This document shows positions 2,993 through 59,141 of a stretch of DNA of 64,000 nucleotides, piece after piece (the first letter of the stretch is position 1; each line of letters starts with the position of its first letter). The translations under genes were made by a program, and so were the position numbers. Under the pieces are notes generated by a model. The model worked only from the letters and a program-made list of their open reading frames with translations, made no database searches and had not been told where the DNA came from. This DNA is from Candidatus Omnitrophota bacterium (GTDB taxonomy: Bacteria > Omnitrophota > Gorgyraeia > JABMRN01 > RBG-13-46-9): the NCBI GenBank assembly GCA_016782425.1, contig JADHYN010000002.1, forward strand, positions 40,807-104,806. The letters run 5' to 3'.

Positions 2993-4257
2993 AAGGTTAG
3001 TGCCTTTTTTAGTCTATTTTTATCGCTTGCGTTTATTGGCCCGATCGCCGCAAAATTCAGATTTTTCTTATTGAAAATCATATTTGCTATCCTTTTTATA
3101 TCAAGGACGCTTACCTTCTCTACATTCTTAAATATTTCCCTGACCGACGGCGCTTTCTCTTCTGAGGTTATCCTCTCACCCAGCCACAGCATCCTTGCAG
3201 TCGTGTCCTCCAGTGCAAGAAGAAGCTGGCCTCTTATATATTCTTTCGCGCGATACAATTCGTCGGGGGTAACAAAGTTGTTTTTTATATTTTTGAGCTC
3301 GTGGATGATCTCCGTCGAGGCTTCTAGGAATTTGTTCTTGCCGATGCCGGCGTGCACGACAAAAGCACCTGTCTCCTTATATTTTTTTACGCTTGAGGAT
3401 ATGTCATAGCATAACGGTTTTTTCTCCCGGAGTCTCTCAAAAAGTCGCGACGACATGTTGCCGCCGAGAATAATGTTTAAAAGCGCAATGGCGTATCTCA
3501 TTTTATGAGTCCGGTTTATGCTGTGGAGACCAAAGGCTACATGTATCTGTTCTGCACGTTTGTATAAAAGTCTGATGTTTTTTTTCCTTTTTGTCTTTTT
3601 GGCTGGGTGGTAGGCGAAATTTTTTCTTGCCGAAGGCATGAAAAAAGTACCTTTGGCAAATTTGAGAGTTTTTTTGCTATCAACTTTACCTGTTACCACG
3701 ATAGACATGTTGGCGGGTTGGTAATACCGGTCTTTAAAATCGGCGAGATCCCCTCTTTTGAAATTTTTTACGGTATTTATATATCCTGCAATGGGGCGGC
3801 CTAACGCGTGATCCGGCCACATTGTCTCTGCAAGGATATCAAATACGTGATGGGACGGCTGGTCGATATACATCTTTATCTCTTCCGAGATAACACGTTT
3901 TTCTTTCTCCAATTCGGCGGGGTCTAGTTGCGGATTTAATACCATATCACTCAGTATATCAAGACCGAGCCCCAAGTACTTAGACGGCAATTTAACGAGA
4001 TAACATGTTACTTCCTCGCTTGTAAAACCGTTAAAGCTACCGCCTACCCCTTCTATTGCTTCTTTCAGGGCGTCTCTTGTCCTTGAATAAGTGCCTTTAA
4101 ATAACATGTGTTCCAGGAGATGGCTCATGCCGCAAAACTTACTATCTTCGTATCTTCCCCCCACGCCGATCCATACGCCTATGGAGACCGAATCCATGTG
4201 CGGCATGTTTGATGTTATAATCTTTAATCCGTTCTTTAGAACTTCTTTCCTATACAT
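2989..4257 (-). CDS. M16 (pitrilysin) family zinc peptidase
   Basis: HLLEHMLFKG is the inverted zinc motif HxxEH. The 422-aa two-lobe length fits the family. 4-nt overlap with the next gene. Confidence 0.85.
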   Translation of the reverse strand: MYRKEVLKNGLKIITSNMPHMDSVSIGVWIGVGGRYEDSKFCGMSHLLEHMLFKGTYSRTRDALKEAIEGVGGSFNGFTSEEVTCYLVKLPSKYLGLGLDILSDMVLNPQLDPAELEKEKRVISEEIKMYIDQPSHHVFDILAETMWPDHALGRPIAGYINTVKNFKRGDLADFKDRYYQPANMSIVVTGKVDSKKTLKFAKGTFFMPSARKNFAYHPAKKTKRKKNIRLLYKRAEQIHVAFGLHSINRTHKMRYAIALLNIILGGNMSSRLFERLREKKPLCYDISSSVKKYKETGAFVVHAGIGKNKFLEASTEIIHELKNIKNNFVTPDELYRAKEYIRGQLLLALEDTTARMLWLGERITSEEKAPSVREIFKNVEKVSVLDIKRIANMIFNKKNLNFAAIGPINASDKNRLKKALTL

Positions 4258-4259
4258 GT

Positions 4260-4301
4260 TACCTGTTACCTGCTACCTGCTACCTGCTACCTGTTACCTG
4301 C
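4260..4301. repeat. tandem heptamer array (TACCTGY)x6
   Basis: Read directly. It fills the ruvX-stop/M16-start spacer and contains the ruvX stop codon (TAG on the minus strand). Confidence 0.9.
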
Positions 4302-5739: not shown

Positions 5740-6548
5740 TTTCCGTCAATTCCTTTCCTTAAACTATTCGTAAATTTGGAAACTTTTTTATACAAATCCT
5801 TGCTTTTTGCATTCTCTTCAATAACTTTAATAACGGCGCTTCCGACAATAACGCCGTCTGCAAGATGCGATATTCTTCTTGCCTGTTTCGGGTTCGAAAC
5901 ACCGAATCCGACACAAACGGGTTTTTTTGTGATTTTTTTAAGTCTTTTGACGTTTTTAATTATATCGCTTGGTAGCCTTGTTCTCGTGCCTGTTACGCCT
6001 GTCAGGGAAACATAGTAAATAAACCCCCTGCTTTTTGCTGCTATATTTTTGAGCCTCTTTTTCGTGCTTGTCGGCGCTGCTAAAAAAACGGTTGCGAAAT
6101 CTCTTTTCTTGGCGGCACCTATAAGTTCCTTTGCTTCTTCCGGCGGTAGATCCGGGACGATAACGCCATCGACACCTGCATTTTTGGAGTCCTTAACAAA
6201 ATTTTTTATGCCGTAATGAGAAACGAGGTTATAATACGTCATAAATACGAGGGGTAGCTTAACCTTTTTTCTTACCGAGTGCACCATTTGCAAAATAGAT
6301 TTTATGTTGGCGCCGCTTAGAATTGCCCTCTGGGATGCCCTTTGTATTGTAGGGCCATCAGCGAGGGGGTCAGAAAACGGTATGCCAAGCTCGACCAAAT
6401 CCACCCCGTTTTTTTCAAGTTCCGCGACAAGCTTTCCTGTCTTTTTAAGATCCGGATCGCCTGCTGTTATGTAAACTATGAATGCTTTTTTACGCTGTTT
6501 TTTTAGTTTCGTGAATAATTTATCTATTCTGTTCATTTTAGTCCTCAT
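5736..6548 (-). CDS. trpA: tryptophan synthase alpha chain
   Basis: [15 protein letters not shown] motif; position after trpB with a 4-nt overlap. Confidence 0.9.
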
Positions 6549-7744
6549 TCGAACTTTATATGTTCCTTAACAATATCTATATCCTTATCGCCCCGTCCTG
6601 ACAGGCAAAGAATGACTATCTTATCTTTCTGCAATCTAGGCGCCAGTTTCAACAGATGATATATTGCGTGTGACGGCTCCAGCGCCGGAATAATACCCTC
6701 GTATTCGGACAGGAGCCTGAATCCGCGAAGGGCGTCTCTATCCGTAACAGCAAAATATTTAGCTCTCTTGATATGCTTATAGTAAGAATGTTCCGGCCCG
6801 ACGCCTGGGTAATCAAGGCCCGCTGAAATAGAATGGGCGATGTTAATCTGGCCGTCTCTATCCTGCAACAGGCAACTTCTCGATCCATGCAGGACTCCCA
6901 CTTCTCCCTTAAGTAGCGCTGCTGCGTGTTTTTTCGTTGCAATCCCGGAACCGCCTGCTTCCACGCCGATAAATTTCACTTTTTTATCATTAAAAAACGG
7001 ATGAAACAGCCCGATGGAATTGCTACCGCCGCCGACACATGCAACGAGATAGTCGGGAAGCCTTTTTTCCATTTTTAGAATCTGGGACTTTGCCTCTTTT
7101 CCGATTACAGATTGAAACTCCCTGACCATAAAGGGATACGGATGAGGGCCTACTACTGAACCCAGGACATAATGCGTATCTCTCACATTGGTAACCCAGT
7201 CTCTTATTGCTTCATTCGTGGCGTCTTTTAATGTTTGTGAACCACCCTCAACCGGGATAACCCGCGCTCCCATAAGCTTCATCCTGTAGACATTCAGGGA
7301 TTGCCGTTTTATATCTTCGGTGCCCATATATATATCACAGACAAATCCGAACATCGCAGCTACCGTAGCTGTTGCTACGCCGTGCTGGCCTGCTCCGGTT
7401 TCCGCGATGAGACGGCGCTTACCCATTTTCTTCGCAAGAAGCGCCTGTCCTATGGTATTGTTTATTTTATGCGCGCCGGTATGAGCGAGGTCTTCGCGTT
7501 TTAGATAAATCTTGGCGCCTTTTAATTTCTTTGTAAGGCGCTCTGCAAAATAGAGAGGCGTGGGTCTTCCTGCGTATTTACTTAAATAATAGCCGAATGC
7601 CTTTTGGAACTTTTTGTCTTTTAACGCTTTCTTTAACTCGTGTTCCAGTTCCTCCAGCGCGTGCATGAGTGTCTCCGGCACGAATTTCCCGCCGAAACCG
7701 CCGAAATAACCGCTTCTCGTCGGTAATTTATATCTTTTTCGCAT
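6545..7744 (-). CDS. trpB: tryptophan synthase beta chain
   Basis: HTGAHKINN (PLP lysine) and GGGSNSIG; 399 aa. Confidence 0.95.
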
Positions 7745-10172: not shown

Positions 10173-10738
10173 TTTTTTATCTCTAAGAAATTTTTTAATA
10201 TCTTTTTCCCTTCGGAGGTCAAAATTGATTCGGGGTGAAATTGCACTCCCCAGGTGGGGTGTTTCTTATGCTTTATGCCCATGATTTCTTTTTTCTTCGT
10301 CTCGGCGATAATTTCCAGAGTCCTGGGAAGGGACTTTCGTTCTATAATCAAAGAATGATACCGTGTGGCCTCGAACGGGTTTTTAACATTCTTGAAAATC
10401 GTTTTCCTCGTGTGGTGTATAAATGATGTCTTTCCGTGCATTATGTATTTGGCTCTTTTGATCTTCCCGCCGAAAACTTCTCCGATGCACTGGTGTCCGA
10501 GACAAACACCTAAAATAGGAATCGAGCCCGAGAACTTCTTTATTACATTGTTGGAAATGCCCGCATCCCGCGGCATGCCAGGCCCCGGTGATATAATGAT
10601 ACTCCGAGGTTTCATCTTTTTTATTTTGTTCAGTGTCAATGCGTCGTTTCTGAAAACCAAAGGATCCTCTCCCAGCTCACCGAGATACTGGACGAGGTTG
10701 TAGGTAAAAGAGTCGTAATTATCTATTACTAAAATCAC
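10169..10738 (-). CDS. trpG: anthranilate synthase component II (glutamine amidotransferase)
   Basis: GVCLGHQ catalytic Cys and the HPES triad end. Confidence 0.9.
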   Translation of the reverse strand: MILVIDNYDSFTYNLVQYLGELGEDPLVFRNDALTLNKIKKMKPRSIIISPGPGMPRDAGISNNVIKKFSGSIPILGVCLGHQCIGEVFGGKIKRAKYIMHGKTSFIHHTRKTIFKNVKNPFEATRYHSLIIERKSLPRTLEIIAETKKKEIMGIKHKKHPTWGVQFHPESILTSEGKKILKNFLEIKK

Positions 10739-12222
10739 TCTAATCCCCTTTCAGCTTCCTTGAGAGCCTTTAGCATCGCTTTTGATTTATTGAGCGTCTC
10801 CTGGTACTCTCTATCGGGCTTAGAATCAGCAACGATTCCTGCACCCGCCTGAAAATAAGCAGTTTTCCCTTTTATGAAAATAGTCCTGATGGCTATGCAC
10901 GTATCCAGATTTCCTGAAAAACTGAAATATCCGACGCTTCCGGCGTAAATACCCCTTTTGACGTTCTCGAGTTCATCGATTATTTCCATGGCGCGTATCT
11001 TGGGTGCACCTGCTACCGTGCCGGCCGGAAACGAGGCCCTGGCAAGGTCGAATATGTCGCACTTGCGTTTTAAGGTTCCGGATACGTCGCTTACGATATG
11101 CATGACATGGGAGTATTTCTCTATCACCATGAATTCCGAAACCTTTACGGTATCAAACCTCGAGACCCTTCCTATGTCATTTCTCCCGAGGTCAACAAGC
11201 ATGATGTGCTCCGCTCTTTCCTTCGGATCCTTTAAAAGCTCCTTTGCAAGAAGCTTGTCCTCTTTTCTATCCCGGCCTCTTCGCCTCGTTCCGGCGATCG
11301 GCCTGAGTTCTGCTTCTCGGTTTTCGCATCTCACCATGATCTCAGGCGATGCACCGATAAGTTTCAGATTGCCGAACTTTAGGTAAAACATGTAGGGAGA
11401 CGGATTTATGCTTCTAAGTGCGCGGTATATGTCAAAAGAATCGCACTCTACTTCTTTTTTGAATCTCTGAGAAAGAACTACCTGAATAATATCGCCGTTT
11501 CTTATATATTCCTTGGCTTTTTTCACGCTTTGCATGAATTGTGTTCTCGTGAAATTCGATTTTATGGGATTTTTTCTTGCTCTTTTTTTCATTGTTTTCG
11601 AAGCGCCTATCGGCATTCTTTTAGGCATGGATAGGTGTTTTATGATTTCTTCTATCTTCCGCACTGCCTTCTCATATGATGCGGAAGGGCTCTTGCCGAC
11701 AAAGGCATTCGAAACAACCTTTATTTTACGATCCACGTGATCAAAAATAAGAATGGTATCGGTCAGGGCAAAAAGAGAATCAGGCAAGTTTAAATCGTCC
11801 TTATTTCTGTCCGGTATCTTCTCGAAGAATCTGACAACGTCATAACCCATGTATCCGACCAACCCCCCGGAAAACCTGGGAAGCCCTTTAACCGGCACGT
11901 AAGAGAATTTCTTCATGATCTTCTTGATTTCAGCAAGCGGATCTTTCTGCATCTTATAAACCTTTTTTTTCTTGCCCTCCAGTATTGTAATTTTCTTGCC
12001 CTTGCTAATGAAAATTAATGAGGGATTGCTGCCAAGAAAGGAGTAACGCGCTATTCTTTCTCCGCCCTCGACGGATTCGAGAAGATAGGAAAATTTTCCT
12101 TTGTTTATTTTTGTAAAAGCAGAAAGCGGCGTCTCAAAATCAGCCAGTATCTCCCTGTAAACGGGGATGAGATTTCCCTTCTTCGCCAGCTTTATGAATT
12201 CTTTCTTACTTGGGTAATGCAT
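10735..12222 (-). CDS. trpE: anthranilate synthase component I
   Basis: LVDLGRNDIGRV and GAGIVADS chorismate-binding motifs; 495 aa. Confidence 0.9.
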   Translation of the reverse strand: MHYPSKKEFIKLAKKGNLIPVYREILADFETPLSAFTKINKGKFSYLLESVEGGERIARYSFLGSNPSLIFISKGKKITILEGKKKKVYKMQKDPLAEIKKIMKKFSYVPVKGLPRFSGGLVGYMGYDVVRFFEKIPDRNKDDLNLPDSLFALTDTILIFDHVDRKIKVVSNAFVGKSPSASYEKAVRKIEEIIKHLSMPKRMPIGASKTMKKRARKNPIKSNFTRTQFMQSVKKAKEYIRNGDIIQVVLSQRFKKEVECDSFDIYRALRSINPSPYMFYLKFGNLKLIGASPEIMVRCENREAELRPIAGTRRRGRDRKEDKLLAKELLKDPKERAEHIMLVDLGRNDIGRVSRFDTVKVSEFMVIEKYSHVMHIVSDVSGTLKRKCDIFDLARASFPAGTVAGAPKIRAMEIIDELENVKRGIYAGSVGYFSFSGNLDTCIAIRTIFIKGKTAYFQAGAGIVADSKPDREYQETLNKSKAMLKALKEAERGLE

Positions 12223-12226
12223 TTTT

Positions 12227-12269
12227 GATTTTTTCCGCCCTAGGCGGAGATATTTGATATTTGATATTA
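12227..12269. repeat. heptamer-flanked CCGCC-CTA-GGCGG hairpin element (intergenic copy)
   Basis: Reads GATTTTT T CCGCC CTA GGCGG A GATATTT GATATTT GATATTA. It occupies the trpE-start/hisI-stop spacer and includes the hisI stop. Confidence 0.8.
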
Positions 12270-19179: not shown

Positions 19180-19635
19180 TTATATTTCTCTCACAATCTC
19201 CTCGATAATATCGAAACGGAACCCGCGTCTTGCAAGAAAATCAAAAAGCTTTTTTCTTGCCTTTTGTTTCGGTAAACTTTTCAAGCTTTCTATTTTTTTC
19301 TCTGCGATACTTCTTGCGGTATGGCTCTCGTTTTCGCCCTTCTCGGACAATGCCTTATCAATAAGAGAGCCTGATATTCCTTTATCCCTTAGCTCCCTGC
19401 GAAGAAGAATATCCCCTTTAGGGTTTCGGCGCATTCTTGACTCGATCCACAGCTTCGCAAACTTAACATCATTTATAATCTTTTTTTCTTTTAAAAGGGA
19501 AATAACCCTTTGGGCAGTTTTGTGGTCAAAACCTTTTTTGTACAACCTGTCTTTTAATTCTTTTTCGCTCCTTGGCCTGATACTAAAAAGTCTATAGGCG
19601 TAGGCCGCCGCCCTCTCGGTCTTATCTTTTTTCAC
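19180..19635 (-). CDS. recX: RecX-like regulatory protein (GTG start)
   Basis: 151 aa of repeated three-helix units, basic, in the classical position next to alaS and downstream of recA. The call is by resemblance and context only. Confidence 0.7.
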   Translation of the reverse strand: MKKDKTERAAAYAYRLFSIRPRSEKELKDRLYKKGFDHKTAQRVISLLKEKKIINDVKFAKLWIESRMRRNPKGDILLRRELRDKGISGSLIDKALSEKGENESHTARSIAEKKIESLKSLPKQKARKKLFDFLARRGFRFDIIEEIVREI

Positions 19636-19732
19636 CCCGTTAGAACCCTTCCATATCTTCGCAATACATCTTATTTGTGTCCTTTTTACAAACGTAACTT
19701 CCTTATTTTAAAAATTGCCTTATTCAACCTCC

Positions 19733-19767
19733 AAAAAATTTCTAACGGGGTTCAGCCCGTTAGAAAT
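19733..19767 (-). terminator. intrinsic terminator after htrA, built from the CCCGTTAGAAAT repeat
   Basis: The minus strand reads ATTTCTAACGGG-ctgaac-CCCGTTAGAAAT followed by TTTTT(T): a 12-bp stem plus U-run, 25 nt after the htrA stop. Confidence 0.75.
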
Positions 19768-19792
19768 TTGTGTACAACAAATATTAAAATTT

Positions 19793-21322
19793 CTAACGGG
19801 CTTCATCTTCCCTAACGGTAAAATAGCCTCGATCGGTCCTCACGAGAGTAAGCCCTTCTGCCTCATTTGTAACGTCGATATAGCCCGAAAGATTTCTTAT
19901 CGTTGTCCTGTTTATCTCTCTTATCACATCGCCCTTTCTCAATCCCGCTTCGTAACCGGGGCTTGAAGGGTCGATATCGATAATAACCACCCCTTCTTTA
20001 TCTTTGAGATTCAATTCGCGGCTCATTTCATTGGTAATATCGGAAACCGTAAGTCCCCGCCATTTTTTAGATTCTTGCGGAGTCCTGGTTTCCCTCCTCT
20101 GTGCGAGTTCAACCCTTGATGGCCTTTTCCCGATCCTAACCGGTACTGTTTTTTTAACCCTGTCGCGTATGACTTCAACTTGGGCAATCTGGCCGATTTC
20201 TGCATTTGTCGCCTCTTTTAAAAGATCAGTAACCGCAGCTATTTTCTTGCCGTTAAATGCTATTACGATATCTCCTTCCTTCAAGCCGCCTTTTTCTGCG
20301 GGGCTATCCGGTGTTACCTGTGAAATCAACGCGCCTTTCCGATCCGGCAAATTGAAATATTCCGCCATCTCGGGCGTTATCTCCTGCACTGCAACCCCAA
20401 GCCAGCCATAGACGATCTCTTTTCCTTCTATTAAATCGTCCAAAATGCGCCTTGCTGCGTTTATCGGAATGGCAAATCCCACGCCTTGATAACCGCCGCT
20501 TGTAGAAAATATAGCGACGTTTATACCTATTACCTTCCCGCTCAAATCGCAAAGGGGCCCTCCGCTGTTACCCGGGTTTATGGCAGCATCCGTTTGTATC
20601 ATGTCAACATGTCCTATTTCTCCACCGGGAGCGGGTATCTGCCTGTGCAGGGCGCTGATAACACCAACCGTAACAGTGGGCTTCGGGCTTCTTATGATAT
20701 GGCCGAAGGGATTTCCAAGTGCCACAGCCCATTCGCCTATCTGAACAAGATCCGAATCTCCGAGCTCAACTGTTGGTAAATTTTTGGCCTTTATCTTAAC
20801 GATTGCCAGATCGCTTCTCGGGTCTTTACCCTTTACGGTACCGGCAAAGCTTCTTCCATCGGGAAGGGTTATGCTAATTTTTTCTGCCCCTTCTATCACG
20901 TGATTATTGGTCAGTATATAACCTTTTTTGTCGATGATAAAACCGCTACCTAATCCGCTTTGTTTGAATTCTCTCTCAGGGAATTGATTGAAGAAATCCT
21001 CGAAAAATTTCTCAAACGGATCTTCTCCGTTATCAAACGGGCTTTTAAAGCGCTTAAATCGGAAGCGCGAGCTCGGAATTCCCACTTTCTGAGTACGTTC
21101 TGTAGATACGGCGACAACGGCCTTTCCGACTTTGTCGGCTACGTTTATAAAGGCGTTTTGGATATCAACCTCGCCTCTTACGTCTTTCACCTTAGTGCTT
21201 GTAACGGCTGGCCTAGCGTTTTTACCCGTTTTTGTCCTTACGGGTCTGGGGCGCAATGATAAAATGAAAATCAAAGCAAGCGCGACCATCAGTATAACGA
21301 GATAAAAAACGGATCTTCTCAT
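19793..21322 (-). CDS. HtrA/DegP-family periplasmic serine protease with two PDZ domains
   Basis: N-terminal TM/signal segment, TNNHV (His), GNSGGPL (Ser), and two PDZ-like repeats. The start overlaps the recA stop (ATGA). Confidence 0.9.
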
Positions 21323-22353
21323 TTTGAGCTACCCCCTTTTCCGATCTCTGCCATTACTTCTTTCTCGATTTTGTTTAAAATACTCGAGTTCTCCTTCAGG
21401 AAAAGCCTTGCGTTTTCTTTGCCCTGGCCTAATTTCTCTTCGCCATAGGCGTACCATGTGCCGACTTTTTTTACGATGCTTTTTGATTCTGCGATATCCA
21501 ATACATTTGCAGATCTCGAAATTCCCTCGTCATACATTATGTCAAACTCGGCCTTCCGGAAAGGAGGGGCTACTTTATTTTTAACAATATTCGCGCGAAC
21601 CCTGTTTCCGACTACTTCATCACCTTTTTTAAGCGATGCGATTCTTCTTAGGTCTATTCTTACCGATGCGTAAAACTTAAGGGCCCGGCCGCCCGGTGTC
21701 GTCTCGGGATTTCCCCACACGATGCCGATTTTTTCCCGGATCTGGTTTATGAAAATAACGCATGTCTTCGACTTGCTTATGGCTCCTGATAATTTCCTGA
21801 GCGCCTGGCTCATGAGCCGCGCTTGCATGCCCATAAATGACTGCCCCATCTCGCCTTCGATTTCGGCTCTCGGTGTAAGCGCCGCAACAGAATCTATCGC
21901 GATTACGTCAATGGCGCTACTTCTCACCAGCGTTTCCGCTATCTCGAGTGCTTGCTCACCCGTGTCAGGCTGTGAGATCAAGAGGTTATCCAGGTTTACG
22001 CCTATTTTTTTGGCATACGTTGCGTCAAAAGCGTGTTCTGCATCGATAAATGCTGCCTGGCCGCCTCTTTTCTGAACATTTGTGATTATATTCAGCGTGA
22101 GGGTCGTCTTGCCACTGGCTTCGGGTCCGTATACTTCTATCACCCTGCCGCGCGGCACCCCACCGATACCCAATGCAATATCCAGCGCAATCGATCCTGT
22201 CGGAATAGCTGGTATATCCAGCTTAAAGTCCTGCCCAAGTTTCATAATCGAACCCTTCCCGAACTGTTTCTCGATTTGATTAAGGGCAAGCTCCAGCGCC
22301 TTTGCCTTTGTCATGTCGAGGTTCTCTTCCATTTTTTTCTTTGTTTTTGGCAT
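21319..22353 (-). CDS. recA: recombinase RecA
   Basis: [10 protein letters not shown] Walker [15 protein letters not shown]; 344 aa. Confidence 0.97.
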
Positions 22354-22468: not shown

Positions 22469-22489
22469 CTGAGACCTGTCCTTGCCTGG

Positions 22490-22512
22490 TTGGCGACCGC
22501 GTCGGTCGCCAA
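22490..22512. repeat. REP palindrome copy A
   Basis: 9-bp GC-rich stem with a 5-nt loop; ends 4 nt before the RAYT stop codon. Confidence 0.9.
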
Positions 22513-22516
22513 GTGG

Positions 22517-23155
22517 TTAATCAAACAGCAAAGTCTTTATTTCCGCTAATTCCCGTTGATAAGAAATTCCATTTATAACAAATCCTTTGTACCAACCTGC
22601 TTCTATGTGTAAAAGACCTTCATATCTGCACAATTTTTCCTTGTCGTTGTTTTCCGGTATATACTCTCGATAGGAAGAATGCTTCCATTCTTCTGGTTTC
22701 TCAACAAGATACGCTGTAACTGGATTTAAATGTACATATCGTGTTAAATGGAGTAACTGTTCATCAGTCTCAACCAATACCTTCTTGGACCTACTTTCCC
22801 ATAACGGCCCTTTTCGTTTATGCTTAAGGTTAAAATAACGGGTATAACTGTTAAGAAGGTTATTTGTAAAAATTGATATTCCATATTCCCTTAACGGTTG
22901 TAATATAAAATGCAAATGGGTAGGCATAAGACAATATGCGATTATTTCTGCAAGCTTTTCTTTTCCAATTAAAAAACTAGCTTTATTACTAAGGTAATTT
23001 GTTTTAGTCGTATATGATCTTGCAAATTTCGAAAAATTAACTGCTGGATTTTCTACCTGATAATAGTAGACCGCGGCCATCATCCGTAAGTAATCATAGT
23101 TATTGTTAAAAATCTTAAATCCTGCTATGCTTTTATTAAAAACATGATAAACCAT
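22517..23155 (-). CDS. IS200/IS605-like Y1 transposase of the REP-associated (RAYT) type
   Basis: HUH motif MPTHLHFIL; catalytic Tyr context LTRYVHLNPV; 212 aa; AAGGAG SD 5 nt upstream; REP copies on both sides. Confidence 0.8.
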   Translation of the reverse strand: MVYHVFNKSIAGFKIFNNNYDYLRMMAAVYYYQVENPAVNFSKFARSYTTKTNYLSNKASFLIGKEKLAEIIAYCLMPTHLHFILQPLREYGISIFTNNLLNSYTRYFNLKHKRKGPLWESRSKKVLVETDEQLLHLTRYVHLNPVTAYLVEKPEEWKHSSYREYIPENNDKEKLCRYEGLLHIEAGWYKGFVINGISYQRELAEIKTLLFD

Positions 23156-23172
23156 CTCTACTCCTTAACCCC

Positions 23173-23194
23173 TTGGCGACCGCGTCGGTCGCCA
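23173..23194. repeat. REP palindrome copy B
   Basis: Same sequence as copy A with the last base changed; directly upstream of the RAYT SD. Confidence 0.9.
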
Positions 23195-23268
23195 CGAGGT
23201 CCCCTTCATATATAAGACAACTGAAATGTAATTTTGCTGCAAAATTTTTTAAAATATTTTCGAGCTGC

Positions 23269-23291
23269 TTGGCGACCGACGCGGTCGCCAA
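23269..23291. repeat. REP palindrome copy C (loop inverted)
   Basis: Identical over 26 nt (TTGGCGACCGACGCGGTCGCCAAATG) to the copy at 46402. Confidence 0.9.
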
Positions 23292-23304
23292 ATGGTCTTT
23301 CTCC

Positions 23305-23340: not shown

Positions 23341-24585
23341 ATGCGTGCAGAAATTATTTCGATAGGAACGGAAATCCTTTTAGGCCATATCGTAAATACA
23401 AACACCGCTTATCTATCAAAAAAAATGGCTCTTTTAGGAATAGACGTGTATCGCCATACCACTGTAGGCGATAATCCGATGAGGATTGTTTCTTTATTGA
23501 AGGAGGCGCTTTCGCGATCTGATATCGTGTTTACGACTGGAGGGTTGGGCCCTACGGTCGATGATATCACGCTAAACGCCATAGGTAGTGCTCTTTCCCG
23601 GTCGTTGGTATTCAACAAGGGAATAGAAAAAAGTATTGCAAAACACTTCAGAAAAAGAGGACTTAAGAAGGCACCCAAAGACGCCGTAAAGCAGGCATAT
23701 ATCCCCCGGGGCGCGCGATGGTTCGAAAATAAGGTAGGTACTGCCCCTGCGGTTCTTGTTGAATACGGAAAAAAATTAATAGTCGCCCTTCCCGGCCCTC
23801 CCAGAGAACTAATCCCTTTATGTGAAAAGAATATTATACCTTATTTAAAGAGAAAAGGGCTTGCCGGAAACTGGACCATAAAGACAAAGGCGATAAAAAC
23901 CGTCGGGCTCGTCGAGGCAGAGGTAAACAGGGCTGTAAAGGATCTTCTCTCCATGGGTCCCGAAACGACGGTGGGAATCTACGCGCATCTTGGTGAAGTA
24001 GATCTTAAAATAACCTCAAAAGCAAAAAGTGAAAAAAGCGCTAACCGCGATATCAAAAAAGTCGAGAAAACGATAAGAAAAAGACTTGGCAAATATATAT
24101 ATGGCACGGATACGGAAACCCTGGAATATGCGCTGGGGACAATGCTTGAAAAAAAGAAAAAGACGCTCGCTATCGCCGAGTCCTGCACCGGGGGCCTCAT
24201 AGCTAACCGAATAACAAATATAAGCGGCAGCTCCAAGTACTTTAAAATGGGTGTGGTTGCCTATTCGAATAAATCAAAAATCAATTTACTCGGTGTTTCA
24301 GATGCTAAAATCAAAAAGTCCGGCGCGGTATCAGGAGGGGTTGCTCTCGATATGGCAAAGGGCATAAAAAATCTATCGAAATCGGATATTGCTATAGGCA
24401 TAACAGGTATTGCCGGTCCAAAAGGTAAAGCAAAGAAAAAACCCATCGGCCTGGTATATATTGCGCTGATAAGCGATAAGGTAAAAGTGGTAAAAGAATA
24501 TCGTTTTAAAGGAACTCGCGAAGAAATAAAACTCCAGTCTTCAATTGCGGCTCTTGATCTCGCAAGGCAACATGGCTCAAAATGA
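23341..24585 (+). CDS. cinA: competence/damage-inducible protein CinA (MoCF-like N domain plus PncC-type C domain)
   Basis: MRAEIISIGTEILLGHIVNTN N-terminus; C-terminal ESCTGGL motif; 414 aa. Confidence 0.9.
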   Translation: MRAEIISIGTEILLGHIVNTNTAYLSKKMALLGIDVYRHTTVGDNPMRIVSLLKEALSRSDIVFTTGGLGPTVDDITLNAIGSALSRSLVFNKGIEKSIAKHFRKRGLKKAPKDAVKQAYIPRGARWFENKVGTAPAVLVEYGKKLIVALPGPPRELIPLCEKNIIPYLKRKGLAGNWTIKTKAIKTVGLVEAEVNRAVKDLLSMGPETTVGIYAHLGEVDLKITSKAKSEKSANRDIKKVEKTIRKRLGKYIYGTDTETLEYALGTMLEKKKKTLAIAESCTGGLIANRITNISGSSKYFKMGVVAYSNKSKINLLGVSDAKIKKSGAVSGGVALDMAKGIKNLSKSDIAIGITGIAGPKGKAKKKPIGLVYIALISDKVKVVKEYRFKGTREEIKLQSSIAALDLARQHGSK

Positions 24586-42137: not shown

Positions 42138-43379
42138 TTATAGTTTCCCTATCGTCAGACTCGAATTGTTCCCTGTAGGACTAAAAGAATTTACTAAAAT
42201 ATTATTGATCTCCTGTTCCCTTGTCTTATTAGGTACACAGTCAAGATCGCATCTTCTATCCAGTTTTTTGTAATTTACCGTTGGAGGAAGGAAGTTCTCC
42301 TCCATAACCCCTATGCTAGCTCCCAGGTTCATCGCGCCTGATGCGGAAAAACTATCGCCAATCATCGACTTGATAGAGCTTATCGGGATCTTTTTCGCCT
42401 TTTTTCCAAATACATTTTTAACGGCTCTTGTTTCCATAACGTCGCAGTCAAGTGTGGAATTCGCACTTGCGCTTATATAAGCGATATCGCCTTCCTTGAG
42501 ACCCATATCTTCCAAGCAATATTTAATTGACTCCGTAGCGCCTTTTGCTTTCGGGCTATATATGTTTTTGCTCTCGGGGTCAAACGAAGTGCCATAGCCG
42601 AGAACTTCCGCGTAGACTTTAGCGTCTCTTGCGCGAGCGTGCTCTAGCTCTTCCAGAACAACTATACAAGCACCTTCACCCATTACTATGCCGTTTCGCC
42701 GCTTATCAAAGGGGCAATCGATTTCCTCTTTCCCCGGTCTGGAGCCGGCTAAGTGCCCGATCTTGTGAAATCCTTTATATGTCTGTTCGCAAAGCTCTTC
42801 AACGCCGCCTGTTAAAACAACTTTATATTCATATAGGTTTATCATGTTCATCGCATAATAGATAGCGTCTAAACTTGAACAAAACCCTGTAGCGATGGTG
42901 CTATTAAATCCTTGTATATTAAACTTAATTGAAATATGGCTTGCGGGTGAATTTATAACGGTATTTGGGAAAAGCGCCGGATTTACAGCCCTTGGTCCTT
43001 CACGAAGTGCCTCTTTATCAAATTCGCTTATTGAGCGTACGCTACCCATTGTAGAACCAAGGGATACGCCACATATATCCGTATCCTTCTCAGGAACAGG
43101 ACAAGGTAATTTTGCATCTTCCAAGGCCAATTTTGAGGCACACAAAACCAATAATGTTGTCCTATCTAAATTACGTAATCCTTTTTGGCCCAAAATCGTC
43201 TTTGGGTTAAAATTCGATATCTCACCGGCAAGTTTTGTCCTAAGGTTAGAAGTGTCAAAAAGTGTAACCGGCTTTACTCCTGAAGCGCCTTTTTTCAATG
43301 CACTCCAGAATTCATGCTTCCCAATCCCATTGGGCGCCAGAACTCCTATGCCGGTTATAACTATTCTTTTTTTCATCAT
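42138..43379 (-). CDS. ketosynthase-like partner protein (chain-length-factor-like; both catalytic His residues replaced)
   Basis: KS fold. Cys is kept (ATGFCSS), but the His positions read SASANST and SMIGDSFSASG. Start moved to ATGATG at 43379 (MMKKRIVITGIG), removing a 37-aa extension. Confidence 0.8.
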   Translation of the reverse strand: MMKKRIVITGIGVLAPNGIGKHEFWSALKKGASGVKPVTLFDTSNLRTKLAGEISNFNPKTILGQKGLRNLDRTTLLVLCASKLALEDAKLPCPVPEKDTDICGVSLGSTMGSVRSISEFDKEALREGPRAVNPALFPNTVINSPASHISIKFNIQGFNSTIATGFCSSLDAIYYAMNMINLYEYKVVLTGGVEELCEQTYKGFHKIGHLAGSRPGKEEIDCPFDKRRNGIVMGEGACIVVLEELEHARARDAKVYAEVLGYGTSFDPESKNIYSPKAKGATESIKYCLEDMGLKEGDIAYISASANSTLDCDVMETRAVKNVFGKKAKKIPISSIKSMIGDSFSASGAMNLGASIGVMEENFLPPTVNYKKLDRRCDLDCVPNKTREQEINNILVNSFSPTGNNSSLTIGKL

Positions 43380-43413
43380 TAAAAATCCTTCAAAAAAAAT
43401 ATACCTATGACAA

Positions 43414-43617
43414 TCAGCGATTGTTTGAGTTCTCTTTACCCGCAATCCATTTATCAATAGTTGACTTCTTGAATCGCCACGCAGAGCCAACCTTGAAACC
43501 GGGTACTTTGCCTTCTTGAGCGTGCTTGTATATCGTAACCTTCTTCATTCTCAAGTACTTAGCAAGCTCATCGATCGTCATTAGGCTGAATTTGCTTTTG
43601 TCGGTCATTTTAGACAC
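43414..43617 (-). CDS. small excisionase-family (MerR-superfamily) HTH DNA-binding protein
   Basis: MTIDELAKYLRMKKVTIYKHAQEGKVPGFKVGSAWRFKKSTIDKWI; 67 aa. Confidence 0.7.
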   Translation of the reverse strand: MSKMTDKSKFSLMTIDELAKYLRMKKVTIYKHAQEGKVPGFKVGSAWRFKKSTIDKWIAGKENSNNR

Positions 43618-45985: not shown

Positions 45986-48727
45986 ATGGACCGAAATCTA
46001 CCGGAAAAATTTAAAAAGATCTCATCCGAATATAGCAATCAAATTGCAATCAAGTATAAAAAGGATAATAAATGGGCTACTATTACCTACGGTGATTTTA
46101 ATAACACCCTTGAATCGCTATGCAACTTTTTATTAACAAAAAATATTAAAAAGGATGATAAGATCGCTATCCTCCTGAAAAACAGGCCTGAATGGCCGCT
46201 TGTATTTTTCGCATCGCTTTCCATAGGGGCTGCCTGTGTACCTATGAATCCCGAATTAACCCAGAAGGAAATCCAAAATATACTTAATAATTCTGAGTCA
46301 AAAATCGTCTTTACGGACGACGGGTTTTTACGTCTAAAAAAGGAAATCCTGCAAAACTGCCCTTCTGTAAAAGAAGTTATTTCCGTGGATTCAGAATCAG
46401 TTTGGCGACCGACGCGGTCGCCAAATGTTAGTAGCGACCGCCATGCCGATCCGGGTGATACAGCATGCATTCTATACACCTCGGGTACCACTGATGAGCC
46501 AAAAGGCGTTATGCTTTCGCACAAGAATTTGCTTTCGAACTGCGAATCGCTTTATAAATTAAACCTGATTACCCGGAAAGACAGCGTAGTTTCCATTCTT
46601 CCGCTCCACCATACCTATCCGCTAACCATAACGATGCTTCTCCCGCTTTTATACGGCGGCATGATAGTCTATCCCGGTACGCTGCGCGGAGAAGCCGTTT
46701 TACAAGCATTAAAAGAGACCAATCCTACTGTTTTTGTTGCCGTGCCGCAGATTTTTTATACGTTTCATCAAAAGATTGTGGATCTACTGAAGAATATCCC
46801 CTTTCCCCTAAAGCTCTTGCTTAATGCTACAACCAATCTTTTATATCGGATTCGGCGTAAAACACGCATCAATTTATCACGCTACCTATTTTTCAGTCTC
46901 CAAAAAAAATTCGGAAAATCGATGCGTTTATTTGTAAGCGGGGGCGCGAAGCTCGATGAAAACGTCGAACAGGACCTTTTCAAATTCGGATTTACGATAT
47001 TGGAAGGTTACGGCCTTACGGAAACCTCGCCTGTCTTAGCCTTGAATCCTTTAAAAAATCCAAAAATAGGTTCGGTAGGACTTGCGATACCAGAGGTGGA
47101 ATTAAGAATAATAAATAAGGATGAGAATGGCCTGGGTGAGGTCATAGCGCGCGGCCCGAATATTATGGAAGGATACTACAAAAGAAGTGATTTAACCGCC
47201 GATGTGATAAAAGACGGGTGGTTTTATACGGGTGATTTAGGATTTTTTGATAAAGACGGCTATTTGTTTTTGACCGGGAGGTCGAAGGATATAATTGTAT
47301 TGAGTTCGGGTAAGAATATATATCCGGAAGAAATAGAAGAGGCTTACTCTAAAGACGTGCCTGCAGAGGAAATATGCGTATTCGAAGTGCCGTCTAAAAA
47401 GGGAGCCAAAGAAACGGAAGTCCTATGGGCTGTTATTGTTCCCGATCTTAAATTCTTCAAAAAATACGGAGAGGTGAATTTAAAAAATGTTATAAAAGAA
47501 AGAATTGACAATGTATCGAGATCCTTACCTCCCCACAAAAGGCTTATGGGTTTTTCCATAACGCTTGATGAGCTTCCGCGTACGCTTTTGGGTAAAGTTA
47601 AAAGGTTTGCCGTTAAAGAAATTTACATACCAAAGATACTAGAGGAAGAAAAAACCATACCGGAAAAAGAGGACTTATCCCGGGAAGACCGTGAATTAGT
47701 AAATACCTATTTCGGTAAAAAGATAATAGATTATCTTAAAAAAACGGCCAAAGTTGACAAGGCGATTGTCCCGGCTAATTCGCTGGAACTCGACCTCGGG
47801 ATAGATTCATTAGGCAGAATTGACCTTGCCTTCGGCCTTGAAAAGCTGTTTGGAACGGAAATAGAAGATGAAATTATCGGCCGTTCGTTTACGGTAAAGG
47901 ACTTAATTCTGGGCTGCATGGAATCGCTTTTGCCGAAAGATACCAAAACCAAGCGGGAAGGCAAAAAAGGAATAGATTTTGGGCCTGATTACTGGGTAAA
48001 ACTTCTCCGGGTTCCCCCAAAAAAGGAAAGCCTGGATAAAATTGATTTAAACCCGGGTTTTGGCGCCTGGCTGGGTGGCTTTATTTTCACGTTATTGCAT
48101 TGGTTGGTCTATAAATTGTTTTATAGCCTAAAAGTAGAAGGAAAGGAAAATTTTCCCGAAAGCGGACCATATATATTATACGTGAATCATTCGAGTTACT
48201 TCGACGGGTTCCTTGTTGCGGTGTCTTTGCCTAAATTTCCGAGATTAGAGTTATTTTTTGTAGGCTTCAGGCCGTATTTTACCGTACCCATTATCAGGAA
48301 CCTCGTAAAAATAGGAAGAATCATACCGCTTGACTTCTCCTCGCACCTTTTAGAGGCCTTACGAAGCTCGTATTATGTCGTTAAAAAAGGTAAAAGCCTG
48401 TGTTTATTCCCCGAGGGCTTGCGTACGCTTGACGGAGAGATAAAAGAATTTAAGAAAGGGTTCGGTATACTGGTAAAAGAAACGCAGGCAAAGCTTGTGC
48501 CGGTTGTTCTAGAAGGCGCTTACGAAGCATGGCCGAGGACTTCCAAATTTCCCAGACGCCACCCTATAAAGGTAAAGTTCGGCAAGCCACGGGATCCCGG
48601 AGATATGGAAAGAGAAGGCTATAAAATGGGCGCTAAAGACAGCTATGAAGCTATATGCCTTGCAGCAAGGGATGTGCTGGTAACGCTAAAAGAAACCACA
48701 ACTTATGGAGGCCGAAGGCCAACTTAA
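45986..48727 (+). CDS. tridomain protein: AMP-dependent acyl ligase, carrier (PP-binding) domain, and 1-acylglycerol-3-phosphate-type acyltransferase
   Basis: LYTSGTTDEPKGV, GYGLTETS, and YTGDLG adenylation motifs; LGIDSLGRIDL carrier Ser; NHSSYFD (HX4D) and FPEGLRT acyltransferase motifs. Confidence 0.85.
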   Translation: MDRNLPEKFKKISSEYSNQIAIKYKKDNKWATITYGDFNNTLESLCNFLLTKNIKKDDKIAILLKNRPEWPLVFFASLSIGAACVPMNPELTQKEIQNILNNSESKIVFTDDGFLRLKKEILQNCPSVKEVISVDSESVWRPTRSPNVSSDRHADPGDTACILYTSGTTDEPKGVMLSHKNLLSNCESLYKLNLITRKDSVVSILPLHHTYPLTITMLLPLLYGGMIVYPGTLRGEAVLQALKETNPTVFVAVPQIFYTFHQKIVDLLKNIPFPLKLLLNATTNLLYRIRRKTRINLSRYLFFSLQKKFGKSMRLFVSGGAKLDENVEQDLFKFGFTILEGYGLTETSPVLALNPLKNPKIGSVGLAIPEVELRIINKDENGLGEVIARGPNIMEGYYKRSDLTADVIKDGWFYTGDLGFFDKDGYLFLTGRSKDIIVLSSGKNIYPEEIEEAYSKDVPAEEICVFEVPSKKGAKETEVLWAVIVPDLKFFKKYGEVNLKNVIKERIDNVSRSLPPHKRLMGFSITLDELPRTLLGKVKRFAVKEIYIPKILEEEKTIPEKEDLSREDRELVNTYFGKKIIDYLKKTAKVDKAIVPANSLELDLGIDSLGRIDLAFGLEKLFGTEIEDEIIGRSFTVKDLILGCMESLLPKDTKTKREGKKGIDFGPDYWVKLLRVPPKKESLDKIDLNPGFGAWLGGFIFTLLHWLVYKLFYSLKVEGKENFPESGPYILYVNHSSYFDGFLVAVSLPKFPRLELFFVGFRPYFTVPIIRNLVKIGRIIPLDFSSHLLEALRSSYYVVKKGKSLCLFPEGLRTLDGEIKEFKKGFGILVKETQAKLVPVVLEGAYEAWPRTSKFPRRHPIKVKFGKPRDPGDMEREGYKMGAKDSYEAICLAARDVLVTLKETTTYGGRRPT
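46402..46424. repeat. REP palindrome copy D, in-frame inside the ligase CDS
   Basis: TTGGCGACCGACGCGGTCGCCAA, translated as VWRPTRSPN just upstream of the LYTSGTT motif. Confidence 0.9.
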
Positions 48728-58696: not shown

Positions 58697-59141
58697 CGTC
58701 TCCGCCCTCTACGCCGTTTCTGCCGTAGGAGTATAAATCGTAGTCCACATTACGGGTACCGGGATATTTATAGACATAGGGGTTTCCCCAGGGGTCTACG
58801 GGTCTTTTTTTCAAATAAGGCCCCCTCCAGTTCGGCGCGCTTGTCGGCTTTGTTAAAAGGGCGTTCAGGCCTTCTTCTGTCTTGGGATAAGCACCGTTAT
58901 CGAGTTCATAGAGATCAAGGGCTGAGCCGATATTCAACTCTATATCTGCCTTGGCGGCTGCTTCTCTTGCCTGTTCGGTTCTCCCGGCGAGTCTGGGCAT
59001 GACCATAGCCACCAGAATGCTTATTATGATGACTACAAGCATGAGTTCTACAAGCGTAAACCCCGTTAGAGATTTCTTAACTACAGGTCTTGTCCCGATC
59101 TCTAACCGGGTAAATCCTTTTTTGTTCCGATGTGATTTCAT
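58659..59141 (-). CDS. gspG: type II secretion major pseudopilin GspG
   Basis: TGFTLVELMLVVIIISILVAMVMP..., AKADIELNIGSALDLYELDNGAYP, and WGNPYVYKYPG. Start set at ATG 59141 (GGAGG 5 nt upstream) rather than 59171. Confidence 0.9.
   Translation of the reverse strand: MKSHRNKKGFTRLEIGTRPVVKKSLTGFTLVELMLVVIIISILVAMVMPRLAGRTEQAREAAAKADIELNIGSALDLYELDNGAYPKTEEGLNALLTKPTSAPNWRGPYLKKRPVDPWGNPYVYKYPGTRNVDYDLYSYGRNGVEGGDDDITNWDEEGTQ

Follow-up and report, generated by a model that had tools for sequence, protein, structure and literature searches.

A perfect palindrome of the repetitive extragenic palindromic (REP) type was found in frame within an intact ligase gene of a Candidatus Omnitrophota bacterium, where it has replaced codons of a variable loop in the adenylation domain without lengthening the protein. 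The window, by which we mean the whole stretch of DNA that was analysed (64,000 nt of contig JADHYN010000002.1, assembly GCA_016782425.1), also holds a gene for a putative REP-associated tyrosine transposase (RAYT) that is bracketed by two copies of the same palindrome family, A and B. We consider it likely that the ligase-gene palindrome is a bona fide REP of this RAYT locus, which replaced loop codons and is carried as a near-neutral passenger. The features that bear on this proposal are as follows, with the intragenic copy designated copy D:

45986-48727, + strand: ligase host gene, intact, 913 aa, with AMP-binding, AMP-binding_C, PP-binding (acyl carrier protein), and PlsC-type acyltransferase domains
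46391-46462, + strand: variable loop, codons 136-159, from strand 130-133 to strand 159-164, just before the YTSGTT P-loop
46402-46424, + strand: intragenic REP TTGGCGACCG-ACG-CGGTCGCCAA, covering the third base of V139, W140-P146, and the first base of N147; its 26-nt identity with copy C extends to 46427
46431-46441, + strand: REP half-arm GTAGCGACCGC, i.e., GT[A/G]GCGACCGC, encoding S149-(S/G)150-D151-R152
22490-22512: REP copy A, with loop CGT on the + strand, 5 nt past the RAYT stop codon
23173-23195: REP copy B, upstream of the RAYT start codon at a distance of 18 nt, with a GTGG head and, on the + strand, a CGT loop
23269-23294, + strand: REP copy C, upstream of a cinA-like gene and sharing 26 identical nt with the intragenic copy
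22517-23155, - strand: RAYT-type transposase gene of the Y1/HUH class, encoding 212 aa; HUH motif, THLHFI; Tyr motif, RYVHLNPV

A sequence-only reading of the window had reported that the intragenic palindrome matches a string beside the RAYT gene over 26 nt. This identity is exact: the 26-mer TTGGCGACCGACGCGGTCGCCAAATG occurs at two sites in the window, 46402-46427 and 23269-23294, and again with three mismatches at 22487-22512 and 23170-23195, where dinucleotide-preserving shuffles predict 0 matches. The core GGCGACCG-NNN-CGGTCGCC was detected at four positions (22492, 23175, 23271, and 46404) against 0.00-0.01 copies expected, and no further degenerate copies with up to three mismatches were found in the 64 kb. 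The intragenic palindrome is, as had been proposed, a member of a family, being one of four copies of which two others flank the RAYT open reading frame (ORF); together with the half-arm, this amounts to four full copies and one half-arm in the 64 kb versus about 0 expected. The REP unit is 23 nt in length and is composed of a perfect 10-bp stem and a 3-nt loop (ACG, or CGT if inverted), with copies B and C inverted relative to each other and 75 nt apart. RNA folding of the four copies gave values of -16.4 to -19.5 kcal/mol, with the gene copy found to be the most stable (-19.5 kcal/mol) because flanking bases lengthen its stem to 11 bp plus a G.U pair (46401-46425). The window has a GC content of 33-47%, mostly about 40%, and the GC-rich palindrome therefore stands out; it carries no stop codon in any of the six frames. 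The head of the unit reads TTGG in three copies and GTGG in copy B and in the half-arm of a sister haplotype (L137), while within the window a GTAG head is present in the half-arm only. No conserved target motif was found 5′ of the four copies. When a genome-contig scan was performed with the loose pattern GGCGACCGNNNCGGTCGCC, the matches listed were mostly high-GC chance matches. A metagenome scan with the exact 21-mer gave 13 single matches, all in contigs of 58-74% GC; these were rejected as relatives of the window family, as the sequence there falls within long ORFs and permits the reading ATDAVA.

The gene bracketed by copies A and B is the only RAYT-type gene in the window. Its product matched Pfam Y1_Tnp at 25.9 bits, above the cut-off of 23, and its best NCBIfam match was REP-associated tyrosine transposase (REP_Tyr_transpos, E 8e-16), although at 58 bits this match falls below the curated cut-off of 80. 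The sole PDB match was E. coli TnpA-REP (4ER8, E 0.0018), with the HUH and YxxxNPV motifs aligned; these matches are in keeping with the earlier naming of this gene as a RAYT. More than 3000 homologues were identified, the closest of which are about 60-64% identical and, where the source was named, derive from Omnitrophota, Scalindua, and Tritonobacter. Hairpins were found beside two of the homologues, which are about 60% identical and come from other Omnitrophota: (i) CATTCTGACCGCGTAGGTCTGACCTACGCGGTCAGAATG on both flanks of the gene in locus L145; and (ii) CACACCGCGTAGGTGTG upstream of the gene in locus L148. These hairpins and the window REP have a common core, ACC-N-ACG-N-GGT, with outer stems that covary (GCG..CGC, CTG..CAG, and CAC..GTG), which is the pattern expected of co-evolving RAYT/REP families. 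The cluster of RAYT and REP copies is positioned between recA (21319-22353, - strand) and the cinA-like gene (23341-24585, + strand); recA and cinA are often adjacent or co-transcribed in bacteria. A different RAYT-like Y1_Tnp gene was observed about 700 bp downstream of the ligase gene of P0003, the closest named orthologue (locus L142, 6059-6688), whose ligase gene has no insert. This transposase gene was rejected as kin of the window system, its inverted flanks (AAAGGGGACGTTTCACTTTG, at 6015-6035 and about 6755-6780) being unrelated.

The host gene encodes an adenylate-forming, putatively fatty-acid-activating enzyme in which the REP is read as protein. The ORF matched AMP-binding PF00501 at 1.6e-79, its PDB relatives are acyl-, oxalyl-, and malonyl-CoA ligases and acyl-ACP synthetases, and its P-loop motif Y164TSGTTDEPKG is invariant across the alignment. 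When compared with 51 homologues, the host protein was found to agree at 199 of the 205 columns with a conservation of 90% or more, with F139V among the six exceptions. Omnitrophota have many full-length orthologues of it, of which the best without a REP is 70% identical. The REP is translated in frame as WRPTRSPN (W140-N147, in the context ..SESVWRPTRSPNVSS..), 16-23 residues before L163-Y164TSGTTDEPKG. Thus, the description of an in-frame REP inside an intact adenylation-domain ORF proved correct, and this copy, lying in frame within the 913-residue ORF, is not extragenic. The loop that receives it contains the most GC-rich 60-nt stretch of the host gene and would yield the tryptic peptides EVISVDSESVWRPTR and SPNVSSDR. 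In an AlphaFold2 model built from 52 sequences (mean predicted local distance difference test score [pLDDT] 83), residues 140-158 were modelled as coil between strands 130-133 and 159-164, and residues 141-150 were the least confident part of the adenylation domain (residues 1-550), at a pLDDT of 57. When solved ligases were aligned with HMMER, the alignments were gapped and of low confidence at the loop. The sequence-only reading had placed the palindrome in a variable surface region: the variability was evident in both length and sequence, whereas for the surface position the low-confidence coil of the model indicates that the loop is probably exposed.

A total of 120 homologues were aligned, and the loop segment between D135 and A160 was measured. 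The query loop measures 24 aa, against 25 for the median of 112 orthologues (range 8-45), 90 of which fall at 24-26 aa, and the 8-10 extra residues anticipated by the sequence-only reading are therefore not present. A Phe occupies the position of V139 in 98 of 119 orthologues, within an SDxFKxAL motif, and the REP-encoded residues W140-S145 align with K-x-A-L-K of the orthologues. At this site the codons of the two closest orthologues without a REP are AT-rich and encode SD(A/E)F(K/R).AL (TCT GAT GCG TTT AAA GAA GCA TTA AAA...). As there are no extra residues and the REP aligns over SDxFKxAL, the REP replaced loop codons, that of the near-invariant Phe included, rather than adding to them. At least 115 of the 120 orthologues are without such an element in the loop. 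The WRPTRSPN peptide was conserved in no orthologue of the alignment; the sole similar peptide was VRPTRS of orthologue P0098, which is itself encoded by a related palindrome.

A second, partial REP arm, which had escaped the sequence-only reading, adjoins the intragenic copy. Besides the four REPs, only one site of the 64 kb contains the heptamer GCGACCG, namely 46434, which lies 10 nt past the intragenic copy; with the heptamer confined to REPs and the half-arm, the REP-derived DNA extends at least from 46401 to 46441. This corresponds to at least 41 of the 72 nt of the loop, encoding V139-R152. The gene copy is thus laid out as a full unit, a 6-nt spacer, and an 11-nt arm only (a 1.5-mer), which is possibly a truncated inverted doublet, and the 3′ arm of the REP is able to pair alternatively with the half-arm. 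The half-arm of the sister haplotype is a perfect REP arm, GTGGCGACCGC, and matches the arm of copy B exactly.

The REP-bearing gene was recovered in five assemblies that represent three haplotypes and were produced with different assemblers from different samples:

REP-bearing DNA: NCBI contig of the metagenome-assembled genome (MAG) (108.6 kb), ENA ERZ24794679 (24.7 kb), and Logan SRR12042682
REP plus five distinguishing single-nucleotide polymorphisms (SNPs): ENA ERZ24794676 (77.3 kb) and Logan ERR13325277

The identical protein is on record as MBL7156741.1, and a 913-aa variant was found as P0122. Over the 22.6 kb in common with ERZ24794676 the DNA is 99.86% identical. Within the host gene, two haplotype comparisons revealed seven differences at six distinct positions (one common to both). 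Five of the six SNPs are synonymous third-position C>T changes, a pattern that is consistent with purifying selection on the gene, and the only non-synonymous SNP (46433 A/G, S150G) lies just 3′ of the REP, in the half-arm. The REP allele is fixed in the sampled population. Elsewhere in the sister haplotype, about 100 bp (L137 7414-7513) fail to align with about 260 bp of the window (43239-43498), between the ketoacyl-synthase and GGDEF genes, and this patch represents an indel or a replaced segment.

Palindromes at the same loop of other orthologues, likewise missed by the sequence-only reading, were sought at eight loci chosen for odd-looking peptides, a sample that is biased accordingly. 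In P0098 (51% identical), a perfect 52-nt palindrome of 25+25 nt with a 2-nt spacer was identified in the same loop (L121 4422-4473, also L122). Each of its arms holds the sub-hairpin CAGACCT-ACG-AGGTCTG, which is the window REP core GACCNACGNGGTC with compensatory stem changes, and it is read as RPTRS in the same frame as in the window gene. The P0098 palindrome appears from its sequence to have the form of a REPIN, with two inverted REP-like units; no further copies were found on its 9-kb contig. The P0098 loop is 22 aa and is not longer than in the 73-75% identical relatives P0080 and P0084. The loop of P0084, the closest relative of P0098 (L150 10340-10420), exceeds all other parts of the P0084 gene in GC content (73% against 49%) and contains GGCGACCGCC, an arm of the window REP, although this octamer also occurs elsewhere in the 12.8-kb locus and is not significant alone; this loop may be a decayed REP. 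P0013 has a clean +19-aa insertion (NPVRRLGSPTLHSGLSNGV) at the same loop when compared with P0012 (L123, about 10430-10487), encoded by a 57-nt imperfect palindrome that starts CCCCGTTAGAA. Two further loops were examined: a convincing palindrome was not found in the odd loop of P0021, and the 15-aa insert of P0070 was rejected as a palindrome and looks like a tandem duplication of an FK.AI motif.

The terminal motif of the P0013 insert defines a second palindromic family in the window, ACCCCGTTAGAAAT...ATTTCTAACGGGGT, with seven matches at no more than one mismatch versus 0.9 expected in the 64 kb. Its positions are:

1890-1922: match to the second palindromic family
19635-19801: four units of the second family in one intergenic region
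59061-59071: match to the second palindromic family

Sequences similar to this second family are seen in the outer arms of the palindrome of P0098 and in ATTCTAACC/ATTCTGACC, the palindromes on either side of the L145 RAYT homologue.

The explanation that we favor would run as follows. Either a single REP unit or a doublet, from the family of the resident RAYT, would enter, in a stop-free frame, a loop that tolerates almost any sequence. The REP DNA would then displace the ancestral SDxFKxAL-type codons, either through an insertion that is followed by or coupled with a deletion of similar size or through replacement-type copying, and the allele would persist as a near-neutral passenger because the loop tolerates almost any sequence. 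Mobilization by the RAYT, copying from the RAYT-proximal copy C or from a common master, neutrality, and any effect of the stable mRNA hairpin are inferred; a regulatory or peptide function is conceivable, but nothing requires it. Several points weigh against this explanation: (i) the NCBIfam score of the RAYT product is below the curated cut-off; (ii) the intragenic copy is the sole dispersed REP copy within the 64 kb; (iii) the metagenome scan gave no exact 21-mer in any other low-GC contig; (iv) a near-invariant Phe was lost, and neutrality is assumed; and (v) the nearest REP-less orthologue is only 70% identical, so that the empty site is not reconstructable and insertion plus deletion is inseparable from replacement. 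In addition, we know of no established mechanism by which REPs are copied in vivo, and template switching driven by the hairpin would also accommodate both the unchanged length and the orphan arm. An origin of this kind, in which the RAYT plays no part and about 26-29 nt were overwritten from copy C by microhomology-primed replication template switching or gene conversion, is possible but on balance unlikely. It would fit the presence of at least 41 nt of REP-derived DNA with no net change in length, the identity to copy C that runs 3 nt past the palindrome on one side only, and the third arm, which is the product expected of hairpin-induced strand switching; the 52-nt palindrome of P0098 is likewise length-neutral relative to its 73-75% identical relatives. 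However, an empty site is lacking for comparison, copies C and D have no flanking homology beyond the unit, and the plain insertion in P0013 occurred at the same loop, while insertion followed by deletion under selection on loop length fits the same data.

We regard as quite improbable that the element was co-opted, with the hairpin kept for ribosome pausing, as an RNase or mRNA-stability site, or as a handle for the RAYT, or with the Trp/Arg/Pro-rich peptide being functional and W140 replacing Phe139. The stability of the mRNA hairpin (-19.5 kcal/mol) and the aromatic W beside the replaced near-invariant F are in line with such a role, as are the palindromes in the same loop of three lineages; yet these three differ in sequence, size, and exact position, and at least 115 of the 120 orthologues do without. 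The palindrome is also still perfect when the neighboring half-arm has the only non-synonymous SNP, but the haplotypes differ by only about 0.14%, so that the perfection of the REP is uninformative on selection. Moreover, a survey of intragenic REPs holds such inserts to be mostly neutral in linkers and loops (PMC3733652). A related idea is in our judgment doubtful, namely that RAYT-family palindromes land recurrently in the loop preceding the P-loop, or that this loop is a selected 'cassette' for them, with independent arrivals in at least three lineages and length-neutral overwriting in two. If true, it would point to replacement-type spread of REPs (by template switching or RAYT strand exchange) and not to simple insertion; selection for a role of the RNA or the peptide would be a further possibility. 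The prospect of an assembly chimera or mis-join, which the sequence-only reading had asked to see checked, is very remote: repeats can cause misassembly of MAGs, and many RAYT homologues are on contigs of about 1 kb, but the five independent assemblies agree and the frame is kept across both junctions. Of negligible probability is chance or convergence, i.e., a constrained peptide that happens to be encoded by a palindrome. The same 21-mer does arise by chance in high-GC genomes, in the ATDAVA frame, but the window is of 33-47% GC with 0 matches expected, and the peptide is conserved in no orthologue, the VRPTRS of P0098 being itself encoded by a related palindrome. Thus, the REP of the resident RAYT locus, replacing loop codons and carried near-neutrally, remains the explanation that we consider likely.

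To our knowledge, Omnitrophota is a candidate phylum with few or no cultured members, and E. coli REPs are extragenic. Opitutus terrae and Omnitrophota both belong to the Planctomycetes-Verrucomicrobia-Chlamydiae (PVC) group. Bertels and Rainey, in 2011, reportedly described REPINs as inverted doublets of REPs in intergenic locations. Copies B and C, in their inverted arrangement, and the complete doublet of P0098 with its 2-nt spacer are REPIN-like, whereas the gene copy of the window is a 1.5-mer and not a full doublet. The arrangement of a transposase flanked by cognate hairpins (a REPtron) is shared with the E. coli TnpA-REP system (PDB 4ER8), but the perfect 10-bp stem and 3-nt loop contrast with the bulged E. 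coli REP, and the transposase sequence is very distant.

Intragenic REPs have precedents. GTAG/CGTC REPs were reported inside known genes of several species by Di Nocera, De Gregorio & Rocco 2013 (BMC Genomics 14:522; PMC3733652), where a single unit contributes about 7-10 aa and a dimer 15-30 aa; these REPs were most numerous in Opitutus terrae and Rickettsia conorii, included a case in a Pseudomonas syringae NRPS (nonribosomal peptide synthetase) adenylation protein, and were read as probably neutral in loops or linkers. An intact ORF carrying a REP, which the sequence-only reading had called unusual, is therefore not without precedent. The window REP resembles the elements of that survey in being a short GC-rich hairpin tied to a RAYT, with a single unit read as about 7-10 aa, and P0098 resembles the dimers. 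In addition, its TTGG/GTGG heads, with GTAG in the half-arm only, resemble the degenerate GTGG heads that were accepted as variants for GTAG-20 of O. terrae (PMC3733652). It differs from the survey elements in its TTGG/GTGG head tetranucleotide and in that the window family is apparently low-copy in 64 kb and brought no net lengthening, and no single-site recurrence was described in the survey, whereas recurrence at one orthologous loop is seen here. Rickettsia palindromic elements (RPEs), the classic example of coding palindromes, are also in-frame, translated, palindromic selfish DNA in functional genes and compatible with the protein fold (Ogata 2000 Science 290:347; Ogata 2002 Genome Res 12:808; both as related in PMC10969869). 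RPE-1 type elements are about 100-150 bp, add 30-50 aa, and have no known dedicated transposase; the window element is 23-41 nt, RAYT-associated, and length-neutral. The likeness to RPEs may extend to surface placement, the window loop being an AlphaFold2 coil with a pLDDT of 57 that is hypervariable among orthologues.

Translated intragenic REPs were thus already known, and what is less ordinary here is the length-neutral replacement, the 1.5-mer, and the recurrence at one loop across lineages. These findings extend translated REP elements to Omnitrophota and provide a clean, population-supported case of selfish hairpin DNA rewriting a protein loop without lengthening it. The recurrent loop palindromes make this gene a natural test-bed for how REPs spread and what filters the sites at which they survive. 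For annotators, REP-like palindromes need not mark intergenic DNA or assembly errors.

Other repeats were observed beside these. Canonical GTAG-headed REPs, GTAGGGGCGACCG-NNN-CGGTCGCCC, with the same stem as the window REP (the GGCGACCG stem), were detected in Oscillospiraceae MAGs (L014, L042, L017, L067, and L090) and in a Patescibacteria MAG (L098). Two copies were present within 8 kb in each of L014 and L042, and L098 has an apparent dimer in which the second hairpin is different; this suggests that the REP stem is common to REP families of distant phyla. In the window itself, a 28-nt repeat, ATTTTTGATTTTTTCCGCCC(G/T)AGGCGGA, with a CCGCC..GGCGG hairpin occurs at 1670-1697 and 12221-12248 (96% identical) and is probably the 'CCGCC element' of the sequence-only reading. 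A 14-nt tandem repeat (TACCTGCTACCTGC-like, at least three units) was found at 4253-4301, with a related copy at 3662-3697.

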